Assembly (NCBI GenBank): GCA_008932965.1
Contig: WBXG01000017.1
Coordinates: 1-28,682, forward strand
Direction of reading: 5' to 3'
Source: Verrucomicrobiota bacterium
GTDB lineage: Bacteria; Verrucomicrobiota; Verrucomicrobiia; Chthoniobacterales; UBA6821
DNA length: 28,682 bases
Position 1 is the first letter of the stretch. Each line of letters opens with the position of its first letter. A program made the position numbers and the translations under genes. Shown piece by piece: positions 123-18,688 of the stretch. Under the pieces are notes generated by a model. The model did not search any database, was not told the origin of the DNA, and was given only the letters and a program-made list of their open reading frames with translations.

Positions 123-994
123 GTTGGAATCTAGTGGCGCCAGGATGGTCGTTTTTTAGCAGTGATCGGCGAGATTCTCAAAAAATAATGATCAATAATA
201 CCGAGGTTGGTGGTACTTCTCTGGTGCGGGTGGTGATACCGCGTCATTCCCATGAGGCAGTAGCTCCCAAGCTCGCTTTCATGGGAGAATATCAACCCGA
301 ATTCATTTTGGAGGATTTATCACTCATAGAAATGGATCCTCGTTCCGAGGAGGAGATAGCTTTATTGAGCCATGAAAAAGCACCTCGCCTGATTACTGTT
401 CGTGATGGGATTGAGATGAGCCCGATTGCTGCTTTTCGCCTTCTTGCAGCACGTATCCCATCTAGCTATCCCATTTTGCTTAAAGATACTCTCAAGCCGG
501 AAAGCCAGATAACAGAGTCAGAGTTGCATAGAAGAGAAGTTACAAAAAATCTACTTACTGCCTCAACAGTAATTGGGGCCCTTCTGTGTGATGGGATTGG
601 TGATGCTGTTCTCATTCGTGGCGAATCCTCTCCTGAAGCTTCTCTTCGGCTTGCCTATAATATTTTACAATCTGCAGGAGTGCGGATTTTTAAAACGGAT
701 TATGTAGCCTGTCCTTCCTGTGGGCGTACACTTTTTAATCTTCAGGAAACAACAGCACGTATTAAAGCTGCAACAGACCATCTTAAGGGAGTTCGTATTG
801 CTATTATGGGTTGTATTGTTAATGGTCCTGGAGAAATGGCGGATGCCGACTTTGGCTATGTGGGTGGAGCACCCGGAAAAGTGAATCTCTACGTTGGCAA
901 GCAAGCAGTCAAATTTAATATTCCTCAGGAAGAGGCTGTGGAGCAGCTTGTCACCTTGATTCAGGAGCATGGGAAATGGGTAGAAAGAGATTAA
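2..994 (+). CDS. ispG: 4-hydroxy-3-methylbut-2-enyl diphosphate synthase IspG (long form), 5'-truncated by the window edge. The frame runs through hairpin-element copy A (1-122).
   Basis: The C-terminal motifs [20 protein letters not shown] and GCIVNGPGE are typical of IspG/GcpE. The ~200 aa before them fit the extra insert domain of long-form IspG. The N-terminal TIM-barrel part is absent, and the frame stays open to position 2 through the repeat. The stop TAA at 992-994 lies inside the TTAA at the start of copy B. Confidence 0.85.
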
Positions 995-1174
995 CCCGGA
1001 TATTTCATACTGATCTACTACGGAAGCCGGGAACTCAGATGGATGCTGCGTTAGACTCACATTTTGATTTGGGCAGTATGTACACATACAGCCCTGTATC
1101 AAAATGCTCGCCTGCCTTACCCCATCAGCCTTCGCGGCCTCCTCGTCACGATCAGTATGAAACATCCGGGTTAA
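991..1174 (+). mobile_element. Hairpin element copy B (type 1a), full length 184 bp, starting on the ispG stop codon.
   Basis: 5' TTAACCCGGATATTTCATACTGATC and 3' GATCAGTATGAAACATCCGGGTTAA form ~25-nt terminal inverted repeats. The interior hairpin is CATTTTGAT...ATCAAAATG. TTAA is present at both ends. Confidence 0.92.
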
Positions 1175-2980: not shown

Positions 2981-3112
2981 TTAACCTGCATATTTCATAC
3001 CGATCACCTACGAAAGCCGGGAAGCAAGGGTGGATGCTGCGTTGAGCTCGAAGTCTTACCCCATCAGCCTTCGCAGCTCCCTCGTTACGATCAGTATGGA
3101 ATATCTGCTCTA
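2981..3112 (+). mobile_element. Hairpin element copy D (type 1b), with a ~52-bp internal deletion. Sits between the glycosyltransferase stop and the desaturase start.
   Basis: TTAACCTGCATATTTCATACCGATCACCTACGAAAGCCGGGAAG...CCCCATCAGCCTTCGCAGCTCCCTCGTTACGATCAGTATGGAATATCTGCTCTA. The central hairpin is missing relative to copy H. The terminal TA overlaps the stop codon (CTA on +) of the 3110-4210 gene. Confidence 0.85.
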
Positions 3113-4210
3113 GGATATTTTGTTCAAAATAAATGTTGCTATTTTTTGGGTTGCAGAAGAGGTAGCCAAAACTGATAAACACTCTTTCCAATATTTCCAT
3201 GTTGCTGCTTCCTGGGAAAAAACTTCTGCTACAGAAGCAGCAATAGTTTCAGGATAGTGGGCAGCTAAACGACCAATATTATGCCGTTCGATAAGTTCTA
3301 TGTTCCCCTCTTCTTGCCCAGGAACAATATGACTGATTAAAAGTGGACACTTCGCTGCCATAGCTTCATGAACAATGGCACCACCAGCTTTTCCAATATA
3401 GAGATGGTGAGAGGCAAGAAGTTCAGGGATGTTTTTTGTCCAACCTATGAGGCTTAATTGAACCCCATTGAAAATACCTGATTTTTCCAAACTTGCATGC
3501 ATTTCTCTCAAGCGGCCAGTGACGACGGTGATCTCAATATTAGGAATACTTTTCAAGGCCTCTAGGACTTCTAATGTATGTTGGGCTTTGGAAGAGGGGA
3601 GGTAGAGAATTTTCCAAGGAGGTTGTGTTATGATCGGAAGAGAAGGCAACATGGCAAACCGTGGAGCAACGGGGAATCCCAAAACATGAATTTTTTCTCT
3701 AAGAACACCATCTTTAGTTAAGACAGAGGCTGTTTCCTCATCAACAACAATAAAATCGTCACTACCGGCTCGATACCACGCTATATTAATAGCAGTCGAG
3801 TCGGTAATCATTGTGACGAAACGGACCTTGCTTGCTTTATTCCCCTCTTTTCGAAGCTCACGAATGAGAAAAGCATAAAGAGGATAAGTCGAAACAATGA
3901 TGTCAGGCTCGAGTTGATCAATGGTCTTTTGAAGGGCGCGCTTGAGTGGCCCCATCATAAAAAGTGTTCTTTCTAAGGTGCTAGGATGATTCAAAAAATT
4001 AAAGATAACACCCCAAATCATTGGGAATTTATTGATTGCAAGTCGGTATCCTGATTGAAGAGCTTTTGTTAACCAAGGAGTGCTTTGAAGGTAAATATCA
4101 ATGACCGTGACGGCTACTTCCGTACCCTCTTGTAATGCTTCACTAATATTATGGGCTGCTGTGTTATGACCATCACCGAACCCAGCCGTAAGAATAAGAA
4201 CTTTTTTCAT
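3110..4210 (-). CDS. MGDG synthase / UgtP-type (GT28 family) diacylglycerol glycosyltransferase.
   Basis: N-terminal MKKVLILTAGFGDGHNTAA and C-terminal GKAGGAIVHEAMAAKCPLL...PGQEEGN resemble the monogalactosyldiacylglycerol synthase family. Confidence 0.8.
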   Translation of the reverse strand: MKKVLILTAGFGDGHNTAAHNISEALQEGTEVAVTVIDIYLQSTPWLTKALQSGYRLAINKFPMIWGVIFNFLNHPSTLERTLFMMGPLKRALQKTIDQLEPDIIVSTYPLYAFLIRELRKEGNKASKVRFVTMITDSTAINIAWYRAGSDDFIVVDEETASVLTKDGVLREKIHVLGFPVAPRFAMLPSLPIITQPPWKILYLPSSKAQHTLEVLEALKSIPNIEITVVTGRLREMHASLEKSGIFNGVQLSLIGWTKNIPELLASHHLYIGKAGGAIVHEAMAAKCPLLISHIVPGQEEGNIELIERHNIGRLAAHYPETIAASVAEVFSQEAATWKYWKECLSVLATSSATQKIATFILNKIS

Positions 4211-4335
4211 AGAAGAGGCTATGCAACTTTAACCTAAAACCGATAAAGCCTGCATCAGGAATTGGAATTAAAAATAGTTGTTATGGAGATAGCTATTCTG
4301 CATGTTCCATGATATTGGCTACAACATAAATACTT

Positions 4336-10320: not shown

Positions 10321-11799
10321 TCATAGTATCACTTCTTTTAAGGCCTTCAGAACGATTGTATCGTCTATTTCGTGAATGACCGATCCTTGGGTTCTATCAA
10401 CCTTACCAATCTGACTCAATAAAACGGTTCGAATCGCTCTTGAGCCTCTTTTTTTATCATAACGTGTTGCTTCGAGAAGATCATTAGGATTCATGCTGCT
10501 TAGGAGCATGGGATCTAACCCAAATATTTCATTCTGATCACCTGCGCAGACCGGGAAATCAGATGGATGCTGCGTTGAGCTCGAAGTCTTCCTCGGGCAG
10601 TAGGGACTCATACAGCCGTCGTTAGACTTCATCACTCGCCTGGCCCCATCAGCCTTCGCAGCCTCCTCGTTACGATTAGTATGAAATATCCGGGTTAATT
10701 TGAATTGATGAAAAAAATCAACGATCATGTCTGCTTCCGTTTTGGAGCAGATTCCTAGGAGTTCACTGATTTTGAGTTCGACTAATATTCCTAACCCTAC
10801 GGCATATCCATGCATGATTTTATATTGAGAAACCTGCTCCATAGCATGCCCTATGGTGTGACCAAAATTTAAAATCATCCGTTCACCAGATTCTTTTTCA
10901 TCCTTGTGAACAAGAGCCATCTTCTGTTCTACCGCCTTGATAACTACCCCCTCTAGCAAATCAAGATCTGGAATCAAAAGTTGGGCAAGATGTTCTTGTA
11001 CGAAAAAAAATTGATCTCGATCATTTGTTAGGAATATTTTAATGGCTTCCATGAGGCCATTGATCATCTGTTCTTGGGAGAGTGTTGTTAAAAAATTAAG
11101 GTCGGCAATCACTGCTGTGGGTTGCCAAAACGCCCCAATGAGATTCTTTCCATAAATCGTATTAATAGCTGTTTTTCCACCAATACTGCTGTCAACCATT
11201 GCAAGTAACGTTGTTGGTATCTGAATGTAGGGAATTCCTCGCATGTAGGTCGCTGCAACAAAGCCTGCAAGATCCCCAACGACTCCCCCTCCTAGGGCCA
11301 CGATCATTGTATTACGTCCACATTGATGCCGGAGCATTTCACCTTCAAGGCGTTCTTTTACCCTGCTGTTTTTTGATTTTTCTCCAGCTCGGAATGAGAG
11401 GAGCTGGGCCTGAAAACCACGCTGGAGTAGTTTTTCAAGCAACGCATCACCATACAGTTTTTTGACATGATGATCCGTAATTATGACCACCTTCTGCTCT
11501 AGTGAGAGAAAGGTTTCTAAGCTCTCTAGCCCGGATATTTCATGCTGATCACCTACGGAAGCCGGGAAGTTAGATGGATGCTGCGTTGATCTCGAAGTCT
11601 TCCTCGGGCAGTGTGTATACACACTGCCCGAGGAAGACTTCATCGCTCGCCTTGCCCCATCAGCCTTCGCGGCCTCCTCATCACGATCAGTATGAAATAT
11701 CCGGGTTATGATATCCCTGCCGATCAGGATCGGATACTGATAACCGGGCGCAGAGGGAAGTTCTAGATAGAGTTGTTGGGGGGTAGTTTGATGTTTCAT
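10321..11799 (-). CDS. aroB: 3-dehydroquinate synthase carrying two in-frame 60-codon hairpin-element insertions (492 aa; 372 aa without them).
   Basis: AroB motifs are intact (GGGVVGDLAGF, DSSIGGKTAIN, NFGHTIGHAME, HGYAVGLG). Two segments, [11 protein letters not shown]...DQHEISGL and TRIFHTNRNEE...DQNEIFGL, are translations of element copies I and H. Confidence 0.9.
   Translation of the reverse strand: MKHQTTPQQLYLELPSAPGYQYPILIGRDIITRIFHTDRDEEAAKADGARRAMKSSSGSVYTHCPRKTSRSTQHPSNFPASVGDQHEISGLESLETFLSLEQKVVIITDHHVKKLYGDALLEKLLQRGFQAQLLSFRAGEKSKNSRVKERLEGEMLRHQCGRNTMIVALGGGVVGDLAGFVAATYMRGIPYIQIPTTLLAMVDSSIGGKTAINTIYGKNLIGAFWQPTAVIADLNFLTTLSQEQMINGLMEAIKIFLTNDRDQFFFVQEHLAQLLIPDLDLLEGVVIKAVEQKMALVHKDEKESGERMILNFGHTIGHAMEQVSQYKIMHGYAVGLGILVELKISELLGICSKTEADMIVDFFHQFKLTRIFHTNRNEEAAKADGARRVMKSNDGCMSPYCPRKTSSSTQHPSDFPVCAGDQNEIFGLDPMLLSSMNPNDLLEATRYDKKRGSRAIRTVLLSQIGKVDRTQGSVIHEIDDTIVLKALKEVIL
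10515..10698 (+). mobile_element. Hairpin element copy H (type 1b), 184 bp, inside aroB (C-terminal third), in frame.
   Basis: CTAACCCAAATATTTCATTCTGATCACCTGCGCAGACCGGGAAATCAGATGGATGCTGCGTTGAGCTCGAAGTCTTCC...CCCCATCAGCCTTCGCAGCCTCCTCGTTACGATTAGTATGAAATATCCGGGTTAA. No stop codon in the aroB frame. Confidence 0.92.
11526..11709 (+). mobile_element. Hairpin element copy I (type 1b), 184 bp, inside aroB (after residue ~31), in frame.
   Basis: CTAGCCCGGATATTTCATGCTGATCACCTACGGAAGCCGGGAAGTTAGATGGATGCTGCGTTGATCTC...CCCCATCAGCCTTCGCGGCCTCCTCATCACGATCAGTATGAAATATCCGGGTTAT. No stop codon in the aroB frame. Confidence 0.92.
11594..11641. repeat. Perfect 48-bp palindrome at the centre of copy I.
   Basis: GAAGTCTTCCTCGGGCAGTGTGTATACACACTGCCCGAGGAAGACTTC equals its own reverse complement (checked base by base). 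The homologous region of copy L is only an imperfect hairpin. Confidence 0.95.
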
Positions 11800-16689: not shown

Positions 16690-16727
16690 CTTCCACAAGC
16701 CATAATGGATGGAGTATGAAATATCCT
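16690..16727 (-). repeat. Hairpin element remnant P (type 3, 5' end, reverse orientation).
   Basis: TTCCACAAGCCATAATGGATGGAGTATGAAATATCC parallels TTCCACAAGCCGTAATAGATTTAGTGTGAAATATCTGGG of copy M. It supplies the upstream ATG (16709) of the maximal ispE ORF. Confidence 0.55.
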
Positions 16728-16759
16728 TTCAAGGAGACTCCACTCCTTATTTTTTCATT

Positions 16760-17617
16760 ATGTCAGCCTCCTCTCTAACGCTCTTAGCACCAGCAAAAAT
16801 CAATCTCTCGCTGCAGCTCTTAAACAAAAGAGCTGATGGATATCATGAAATTGAGACGTTGATGGCACCTATTACTCTGGCTGATGAGCTTGAAATTACC
16901 TGCACTCATACTGCTGCTCCCATTCCAATAACACTCACCTGCAATGATCCTTCCCTGCCACTTGGAGAAAAGAACCTATGCGTACAAGCTGCTCATGCTT
17001 TTCAGAAAGCAACTGGTATTCAAGAGCCAGTTTCTATCACCCTGTTAAAAAAAATCCCATATGGAGCAGGGCTAGGTGGGGGGAGTAGTGATGCAGCTGC
17101 GGTGCTACAAGGTATGAATGCTCTTTTCAAAAAGCCTTTAGTCGAGGAGGAGCTGCATCTCCTCTCCGTATCACTAGGATCAGATGTCCCCTTTTTTTTA
17201 CAAAGGAAACCTGCATGGTGCCGTGGCCGTGGTGAAATTCTCTCTGAAGCAGCGCCTCTTCCAGCATGGAACCTGCTTCTAATCAAGCCTCCCTTTTCCG
17301 TAGATACCACTTGGGCTTACCAGCACTGGGACAAAAAAAAGTGGACCCCAAAAGAGCCAATGACTCACGATGAGATCACCCTTTTCAATCATCTCGAGCT
17401 TCCTGTTTTTGAAAAGTACCTTCTCCTTCCAGTCTTAAAAGAGTGGTTATTAAAGCTACCTGAAGTAATCACAGTTTGGATGAGTGGCTCTGGATCAACA
17501 ATGGTGGCACTGTTAAACCAAGAGCTCTCTTGGGAGCAGAATCAAAGACTCCAAACAACGATAAGAACTACTTTTGGAGAGTATTTTTGGATTAAAAGTG
17601 TCACTTTTCTAACTTAA
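16760..17617 (+). CDS. ispE: 4-diphosphocytidyl-2-C-methyl-D-erythritol kinase (start chosen at MSASS; the maximal ORF starts at 16709 inside a repeat remnant).
   Basis: LLAPAKINLSLQLLNKRADGYHEIETLM and PYGAGLGGGSSDAAAV are GHMP-kinase IspE motifs. The stop TAA at 17615-17617 lies in the TTAA at the start of copy K. Confidence 0.9.
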   Translation: MSASSLTLLAPAKINLSLQLLNKRADGYHEIETLMAPITLADELEITCTHTAAPIPITLTCNDPSLPLGEKNLCVQAAHAFQKATGIQEPVSITLLKKIPYGAGLGGGSSDAAAVLQGMNALFKKPLVEEELHLLSVSLGSDVPFFLQRKPAWCRGRGEILSEAAPLPAWNLLLIKPPFSVDTTWAYQHWDKKKWTPKEPMTHDEITLFNHLELPVFEKYLLLPVLKEWLLKLPEVITVWMSGSGSTMVALLNQELSWEQNQRLQTTIRTTFGEYFWIKSVTFLT

Positions 17618-17799
17618 CCCGCATATTTCACACCGATCTACTACGGAAGCCGGGAAGTCAGATGGATGCTGCGTTAGACTCACATTTTGATTTGAGCAGT
17701 ATATACACATACAGCCCTGCATCAAAATGCTCGCCTGCCTTGTACTAATAAGCTTTGCACGGCGCCTCATGACACTTCAGTATGAAACATCCGGGTTAA
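17614..17799 (+). mobile_element. Hairpin element copy K (type 1a, diverged 3' module), 186 bp, between the convergent ispE and exonuclease genes.
   Basis: TTAACCCGCATATTTCACACCGATCTACTACGGAAGCCGGGAAGTCAGATGGATGCTGCGTTAGACTCACATTTTGATTTGAGCAG...CTTCAGTATGAAACATCCGGGTTAA. The left TTAA holds the ispE stop and the right TTAA holds the exonuclease stop on the other strand. Confidence 0.9.
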
Positions 17800-18395
17800 C
17801 AGTTTTTTTTACGAGTCCGAGTTAAGAATTCAATAGGCTCTTCATAAAGTTCTGTTTCTTGGATCAGATGCAACAGTAAGACTAAGCAAGCAAGGGCATC
17901 TGAGAGTGCTTCGTGCCAACGGAAATCAGGGAGTATTTTTCTTAATTTTTCTAAAAGTCCAAAATGAGTAATGAGATCTTCAAGCTTGTAGGAAGGAAGT
18001 CCTGGAATCATCTCGCGACTCAGAGTCAATGTATCAATCCATGGACCAAAGCCATGCATCGGGAAGGCACGTAAGAAGCGGCGTTCAGTACCATGTCCAT
18101 GGGCTACAAGATAGCGACTAGCAAGACGTTTTTTAAACTCTGGCCAGAGCGCCTGCATTGTAGGGGCCTCCTTAAGATGATGATCAGAAATGCCATGCAG
18201 TTGCTGTGCTCTCCAGGTAACAGGGCGTCCGATTTGTAAATAAGATCGAAAAAACAGCGTCGGTTGTAATTGTAACTCTTTCATGGAGGCCATTCCGACT
18301 TGAATAGGATAGGTCGTTTCTCCAGGAGATTCTCCAGCAGATTCAAAATCAATAGCAACAAGCGAGGCCTCTTTAATCAGTAATTTTCCCATCAA
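17796..18395 (-). CDS. DEDDh 3'-5' exonuclease (DnaQ/epsilon-like domain protein).
   Basis: Exo I VAIDFESAG, and Exo III-like HEALSDALA with H-x4-D. About 200 aa. Confidence 0.75.
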   Translation of the reverse strand: MMGKLLIKEASLVAIDFESAGESPGETTYPIQVGMASMKELQLQPTLFFRSYLQIGRPVTWRAQQLHGISDHHLKEAPTMQALWPEFKKRLASRYLVAHGHGTERRFLRAFPMHGFGPWIDTLTLSREMIPGLPSYKLEDLITHFGLLEKLRKILPDFRWHEALSDALACLVLLLHLIQETELYEEPIEFLTRTRKKNC

Positions 18396-18504: not shown

Positions 18505-18688
18505 GTAACCCGGATATTTCATCCCGATCTACTGTAGAAAACGGGAAGTCAGATGGATGCTGCGTTGATCTCGAAGTCTTCCTCGGGCAGTGTGTATACA
18601 CACTGCCGTCGTCAGACTTCATCACTCGCCTCGCCCCATTAGTCTTCGCGGTCTCCTCGTCACGATCAGTATAAAATATCTGGGTTAA
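18505..18688 (+). mobile_element. Hairpin element copy L (type 1b), 184 bp, between the DAHP synthase stop and the exonuclease start.
   Basis: GTAACCCGGATATTTCATCCCGATCTACTGTAGAAAACGGGAAGTCAGATGGATGCTGCGTTGATCTCGAAGTCTTCCTCGGGCAGTGTGTATACACACTGCCGTCG...CACGATCAGTATAAAATATCTGGGTTAA. Confidence 0.9.

Follow-up and report, generated by a model that had tools for sequence, protein, structure and literature searches.

The window, by which we mean the whole stretch of DNA analysed here (28,682 nucleotides), derives from a freshwater metagenome and belongs to a population of Verrucomicrobiota, order Chthoniobacterales. It contains two convergent genes, ispE and a 3'-5' exonuclease, that are separated by a short repeat element and end in the two junctions of that element. 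The features of the locus are as follows.

16691-16726: element-end remnant, which holds the called ispE start at 16709
16709..17617, plus strand: ispE (4-diphosphocytidyl-2-C-methyl-D-erythritol kinase), a GHMP kinase, named ispE by Pfam and by the source annotation
17615-17617, plus strand: ispE stop codon TAA, within the left TTAA (17614-17617)
17614..17617: left TTAA, putatively the target-site-duplication copy of an old insertion, E1, in the ispE stop codon (T+TAA)
17618..17795, plus strand: the MITE proper, 178 nt (canonical length 176), matching the full model with an nhmmer score of 162.7
17618-17642 and 17771-17795: TIRs of the focal copy, imperfect, about 22-25 nt, paired in predicted folds
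17741..17776, plus strand: C-type variant of the right arm, in the window assembly only
17796..17799: right TTAA, putatively a target-site duplicate left by a second insertion (E2) in the 3' UTR of the exonuclease gene, and now the exonuclease stop
17796-17798, minus strand: exonuclease stop codon (reverse complement), within the right TTAA (17796-17799)
17796..18395, minus strand: RNase_T-family 3'-5' exonuclease, an ORF of 199 aa
17799..17810, minus strand: four extra C-terminal codons of the exonuclease (KKNC), with AAA at codon 17808-17810 against the native TAA of relatives
18506..18687, plus strand: adjacent element copy in the spacer between the exonuclease and DAHP synthase, with an empty site in the sister species

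A preliminary description of this DNA had placed both stop codons inside the junction tetranucleotides, and the coordinates are confirmed for ispE (ORF 16709-17617, plus strand; stop 17615-17617) and for the exonuclease (ORF 17796-18395, minus strand; stop 17796-17798). Its arithmetic is also correct: deletion of the element and one TTAA gives ...CTAACTTAACAGTTT..., in which both stops fall within a single TTAA. The C-terminus of IspE has its native length, as seen by comparison with 40 homologues. The first 18 codons of the called ORF, in turn, cross the element-end remnant, and the true start is therefore probably Met19 at 16763, with codons 1-18 (16709-16762) probably untranslated; the IspE protein of the sister species has 284 aa. 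A full element copy also lies between purL and ispE in the sister species (L001:5772-5954).

The end of the exonuclease is different from that of its homologues. In relatives the protein terminates in ...TRPR*, ...TQLR* or ...TQLH*, and in the window it terminates in ...TRTRKKNC*. The 3' DNA aligns ungapped, with CGT TAA AAA AGC TGC TAT in the sister species and CGT AAA AAA AAC TGT TAA in the window; the native stop codon has been lost. The TTAA on the exonuclease side is a back-up stop and not a regenerated original. The preliminary description had both stops regenerated by the element, which is right insofar as a TTAA duplication keeps a TAA readable from either side, but the exonuclease stop within it is not ancestral.

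We identify the element as a MITE, a non-autonomous transposon, whose family is abundant in MAGs of freshwater Chthoniobacterales (Verrucomicrobiota). A scan of GTDB species genomes for the TIR pattern found at least 80 loci, nearly all of which, among the matches listed, lie in Chthoniobacterales or 'Spartobacteria' MAGs. By profile search of about 1 Mb of fetched DNA, we obtained 292 non-overlapping matches, among which 101 unique copies are full and have flanks; the 28.7-kb window itself has at least 13 copies or fragments. The family has a modal length of 176 nt plus the duplication, occurs in many copies and encodes no transposase of its own, the only ORF inside the element being a read-through frame of 53 aa. 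Its TIRs are about 25 nt long (CCCGGATATTTCATACTGATC / GATCAGTATGAAATATCCGGG), with the family sequence CCCGGATATTTCAYACYGATC and a TIR end also given as CCCGGATATTTCAYAC. Copies of a second size class (263-301 nt) carry the same TIRs (L082:289-551, L139:120-382, L153:1203-1465 and about 17 more).

About 1 Mb of related DNA yielded neither an autonomous copy nor a transposase, an absence that carries little weight since MAGs often lack IS copies. Within the same 1 Mb, TIR pairs spaced 0.26-4 kb apart enclose housekeeping genes only, and no multi-copy ORF occurs among 518 ORFs. Rfam at gathering score and ARAGORN returned no RNA family or tRNA match on the window. A conserved full-length hairpin was considered and rejected, as RNAalifold on 61 copies supports just the pairing of the TIRs and short local stems; the fold of the focal copy gives z = -1.8 for the plus strand and z = -4.2 for the minus strand. 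The focal copy contains one promoter-like match, a number not above that in shuffles of the region, and no terminator-like site.

The family is assembled from arm modules, A or B on the left and A or C on the right, which recombine freely across its members. Relative to seven other assemblies of the locus (L005, L007-L012), all with an A-type right arm, the window has 25 differences within the element, of which 19 fall in 17741-17776, and a flank divergence of about 0.3%. The C-type arm that occupies this segment is a standard module in other copies, and the arms of the element are exchanged rapidly.

Comparison of the junctions across the family defines its target site. Both junction 4-mers are identical in 70 of the 101 full copies (TTAA in 37, CTAG in 24 and CTAA in 9) and differ in the remaining 31. 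The outer bases flanking the central TA match their partners in 82 and 81 of the 101 copies, respectively, and one base further out the agreement falls to 35 and 34. Three clean empty sites, two from nested insertions and one orthologous, carry a single TTAG, CTAA or CTAG (filled copies L115:2114-2295, L125:2525-2709 and L066:10259-10440). The target is YTAR, and all four of its bases are duplicated. The claim that the junction tetranucleotide is a duplicated target is thereby upheld, on the 4-mer identity in 70 of 101 copies and the single-copy empty sites; the nested and orthologous empty sites are cleaner evidence for it than the focal locus, which had been put forward as the cleanest. Among the three possibilities that the preliminary description proposed to separate, a 4-bp duplication stands, at YTAR with TTAA commonest, whereas duplication of TA and insertion without duplication do not.

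A family of the IS630/Tc1-mariner type, duplicating TA only and with termini A...T or G...C, would fit TA as the sole invariant junction dinucleotide and a sister empty site that reads CATCT-CA-CCAC against TA...TA; it is hardly tenable, given that non-palindromic 4-mers are duplicated entire (CTAA/CTAA nine times, and TTAG/TTAG) and have single-copy empty sites, and that it is the flank, rather than the opposite terminus, with which the bases beside TA co-vary. With 10 copies and a single empty site of the sister species, the duplication looked like a 2-bp TA, a reading that the table of 101 copies and the nested empty sites overturned. The strict TTAA target of piggyBac-like elements is not seen either, as 37 of the 70 matched pairs are TTAA. 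Palindromic elements of the IS200/IS605 type (PATEs) lack TIRs, make no duplication and insert 3' of a short sequence, a combination that the family does not have. Its 4-bp YTAR duplication is that of the IS5 family, and the duplication motif of IS5, as measured in E. coli, is YTAR (PMC5009759). By analogy, the mobilising enzyme would be a DDE transposase of the IS5 family; because about 1 Mb of related DNA gave no autonomous copy or transposase, the duplication is the sole ground for this assignment.

Abutting copies with one common junction TTAA or CTAG occur in the window (992-1173 / 1172-1251) and in L013 (3878-4059 / 4058-4246), in addition to the nested copies in L115 and L125. Regenerated targets and YTAR sites within the element are re-used for insertion.

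The duplication has a direct consequence at gene ends. When TTAA or CTAG is duplicated, a complete TAA or TAG is left facing inward on each side, and insertion into a stop codon consequently costs the gene nothing. Junctions of full copies coincide with the stop of an open frame (120 codons or more) in 28 of 208 cases (13.5%), compared with 1.4% for YTAR sites as a whole in this DNA. At that rate, both junctions would be gene stops in about 1.9 of 104 copies, and one was observed, namely the focal copy; the enrichment of stops in junctions is beyond chance at the level of the family, not at the focal locus. Elsewhere in the window, the stop of ispG (GcpE; ORF 17-994) at 992-994 lies inside a junction TTAA, and that of a glycosyltransferase (ORF 3110-4210, minus strand) at 3110-3112 lies inside a junction CTAG.

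In the sister species, whose ispE is 87% identical, the gene order is ispE-element-206aa-134aa-DHO_dh (L001). The element copy sits in the same ispE stop codon as in the window (...GAT TAA CCCGG), and insertion E1 is thus common to both species. A relative at 82% has the ispE end GTT TAA AAAAG and no element, and the outgroups L020, L023 and L024 pass from ispE to the 206-aa gene, again with no element. The exonuclease is followed on the same strand by a gene of 285/286 aa in the sister species (L013-16) and in the relatives L017-19, L062 and L064/65, and the spacer between the two genes has no element in the sister species. The preliminary description had proposed a look at the orthologous ispE/exonuclease junction in relatives and had named another gene-end arrangement there as grounds for refutation; the arrangement found is indeed a different one, with the 206-aa and 285/286-aa genes as neighbours. 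Because both genes have other downstream neighbours in the sister species and relatives, the convergence of ispE and the exonuclease is derived, with the element at the synteny break. In L064 (150-300) and L065 (115-265), a degenerate insert of ~150 nt with the same termini (TAGCCCGCC...GCCGGGCTA) lies in the exonuclease/285-aa spacer, 45 nt past the exonuclease stop, and shows that this spacer was hit by a separate insertion.

The cluster of 285-aa proteins from the window's species led to contigs with the reciprocal junction. L066, L067 and L068 carry genes for IMS, S24, an aminotransferase, DHO_dh, the 134-aa protein and the 206-aa protein (minus strand); these are followed by the element and, after it, by the 285-aa gene, a PUA methyltransferase and a radical SAM protein. 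A metagenome scan for the 206-aa gene of the window species returned other species. That both junctions come from the same species is seen in ispE, the exonuclease and the 285-aa protein, which are common to two NCBI MAG accession series; divergence from the sister species is similar at the two junction loci.

The flanks of the two junctions restore the ancestral order when exchanged. The ispE flank of the window, joined through one TTAA to the reverse complement of the left flank of L066, aligns ungapped with the sister locus after removal of its element and is colinear with the outgroups. The exonuclease flank of the window, joined through one TTAA to the right flank of L066, is colinear with the sister exonuclease/285-aa spacer, and ungapped homology to the sister exonuclease 3' UTR reaches the right TTAA. 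The other half of the E2 duplication is found at L066 7941-7944, adjoining the 285-aa gene. The two junction elements point in opposite directions, which is the arrangement expected after an inversion between inverted repeats. The ispE-element-exonuclease join is present in at least six independent assemblies; the two junctions are known from separate metagenomic contigs and would both lie on one chromosome.

From these alignments, we consider it likely, with good confidence, that one inversion between the inverted copies E1 and E2 made ispE and the exonuclease convergent. E1 would have inserted in the T+TAA of the ispE stop before the split between the window species and its sister, with the 206-aa gene downstream. 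In the window lineage, E2 would then have inserted in the opposite orientation in a TTAA 13 nt past the exonuclease stop, a site that lies upstream of the 285-aa gene. The intervening DNA would then be inverted as E1 and E2 recombined, giving ispE -> element <- exonuclease as one product and 206-aa gene <- element -> 285-aa gene as the other. At an undated point in this sequence, the native TAA of the exonuclease became AAA, and translation now extends by four codons to the retained TTAA; its order relative to the other steps is a matter of reconstruction.

We infer that the exchange was homologous recombination and not transposase-mediated. An inversion by a transposase acting on the ends of two copies, through alternative transposition or end exchange, would be in keeping with a flank switch that apparently falls at or very near the element ends, with whole arm modules beside new flanks, and with the non-matching junction 4-mers of 31 of the 101 copies, which flank exchange would give. 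We regard this route as unlikely: point mutation or arm conversion also yields non-matching 4-mers, about 1 Mb of related DNA revealed no transposase gene, and RecA has adequate substrates in inverted 180-bp repeats whose 25-bp ends are identical.

It is very improbable that the ispE-element-exonuclease join is an assembly chimera arising from repeat collapse. The element is highly repeated, and other joins at the same copies are present in L004 and L010, but assemblies from different projects and samples, at least six of them, contain the same join, at least three samples yielded the complementary join independently, the NCBI protein accessions of ispE and the exonuclease are consecutive, and the window copy has locus-specific sequence across the element. 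In L004 (3907-4260), from another assembly of the same population, ispE and the element are joined to HpaP/FliP genes; in L010 (4796-5100), likewise another assembly of this population, the exonuclease and the element are joined to RND efflux genes. Either more element-mediated rearrangements or chimeric assemblies would account for these joins.

The preliminary description had ispE and the exonuclease already convergent, with stops overlapping in one TTAA that a single insertion then duplicated, a history that agrees with the deletion arithmetic and with the family's habit of duplicating TTAA but is next to impossible in view of an ispE/exonuclease adjacency found in no relative, other neighbours conserved in the sister species and outgroups, the 206-aa gene downstream of the sister's ispE-side copy, the reciprocal junction and an ancestral exonuclease stop four codons upstream of the TTAA; the two TTAAs represent two insertion events.

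A limit on the preferred reading, an inversion between E1 and E2, is that all four junction 4-mers are TTAA, and for this reason the original junction pairs are not recoverable. A B-type left arm lies beside ispE in the sister species and beside the 285-aa gene in L066. Placement of the crossover from arm types was tried and rejected, as the arm types are common modules that are exchanged between strains. Since arms do not track flanks and are exchanged fast, the crossover cannot be placed, and later conversions must be assumed.

Members of the family also lie inside genes. The canonical insertion of 176 + 4 = 180 nt is exactly 60 codons, and the frame TTA-ACC-CGG can be read through in either direction (LTRIFHTD...YEISGL); the following frame runs into TAA or TAG at the junction. 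The insert peptide has a constant start and ends in ...YEISGL, whichever the orientation. The window copy at 10516-10697 is in frame within aroB (ORF 10321-11799, minus strand), and the AroB structure 1dqs aligns on both sides of the 61-residue insert. Of 103 full copies, at least 10 are in frame within long ORFs, among them one in glnD with the HD domain before the insert and ACT domains after it; in-frame copies are located at L088:3868-4049, L141:2883-3064, L148:1854-2035, L156:3660-3841 and L097:273-454. A PD-(D/E)XK nuclease, an FtsX permease and other proteins carry like inserts in related MAGs. Frequent in-frame coding insertion, as in Rickettsia palindromic elements (RPEs), is thus a property of the family and not of the focal copy, which is intergenic.

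The copies are also biased in orientation. Relative to the sign of the local GC skew, orientations are 57:23 at positive loci and 19:40 at negative loci (L070-L157; Fisher p = 6e-6), and the window copies with a score of at least 60 comprise nine on the plus strand and none on the minus strand. This suggests a bias in insertion or survival linked to replication direction or to gene-strand composition. We put forward, tentatively and as a possibility that we rate below even, the joint reading that the family is shaped for coding compatibility, as a verrucomicrobial counterpart of RPEs, and that its insertion or survival is perhaps coupled to replication. By virtue of coding compatibility, a copy may land in a stop codon or in a gene, as in the essential genes aroB and glnD, without destroying the gene. 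Replication coupling, if true, would explain inversions from recombination between copies.

Among known systems, IS elements of the IS5 group and the MITEs derived from them resemble the family in their 4-bp YTAR duplication (TTAA, CTAG, CTAA/TTAG), their TIRs and their bias towards non-coding DNA and gene ends. The family differs in that about 1 Mb of related DNA yielded no cognate transposase, and in its host, uncultured Chthoniobacterales. piggyBac of eukaryotes likewise duplicates TTAA as 4 bp, and uses TTAA only. The verrucomicrobial family, by contrast, also uses CTAG and CTAA, has a bacterial host and is not accompanied by evidence of a piggyBac-type transposase. Correia elements of Neisseria and MITEs of the RUP/Nezha type, which are mobilised by IS630-like enzymes, share a length of 100-200 bp, TIRs, a TA core, a preference for gene ends and rearrangements, and Correia elements have been involved in inversions, as the focal element probably has. 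These duplicate TA only, whereas the verrucomicrobial family duplicates four bases. RPEs are small palindromic repeats that often lie in frame in housekeeping genes and add a conserved peptide (PMC10969869). The verrucomicrobial copies that add 60 codons inside aroB and glnD are reminiscent of them, a resemblance of behaviour; unlike RPEs, the family has a clear 4-bp duplication, long TIRs and mostly intergenic copies.

The locus is a worked example of two known things, a MITE that sits free of cost in a stop codon and MITE copies that act as inversion breakpoints, and its arrangement is what insertion into a stop codon and a later inversion between copies ordinarily produce. A gene whose own stop is lost can find a back-up in the element. 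In abundant freshwater Verrucomicrobiota, such repeats break or mis-join metagenomic assemblies, inflate ORF calls, as in an ispE start 18 codons too long and an aroB with a 61-residue insert, and mark synteny breaks. The in-frame copies of 60 codons, the orientation with GC skew and the rapid exchange of arms may be of interest for work on mobile elements and on protein evolution.
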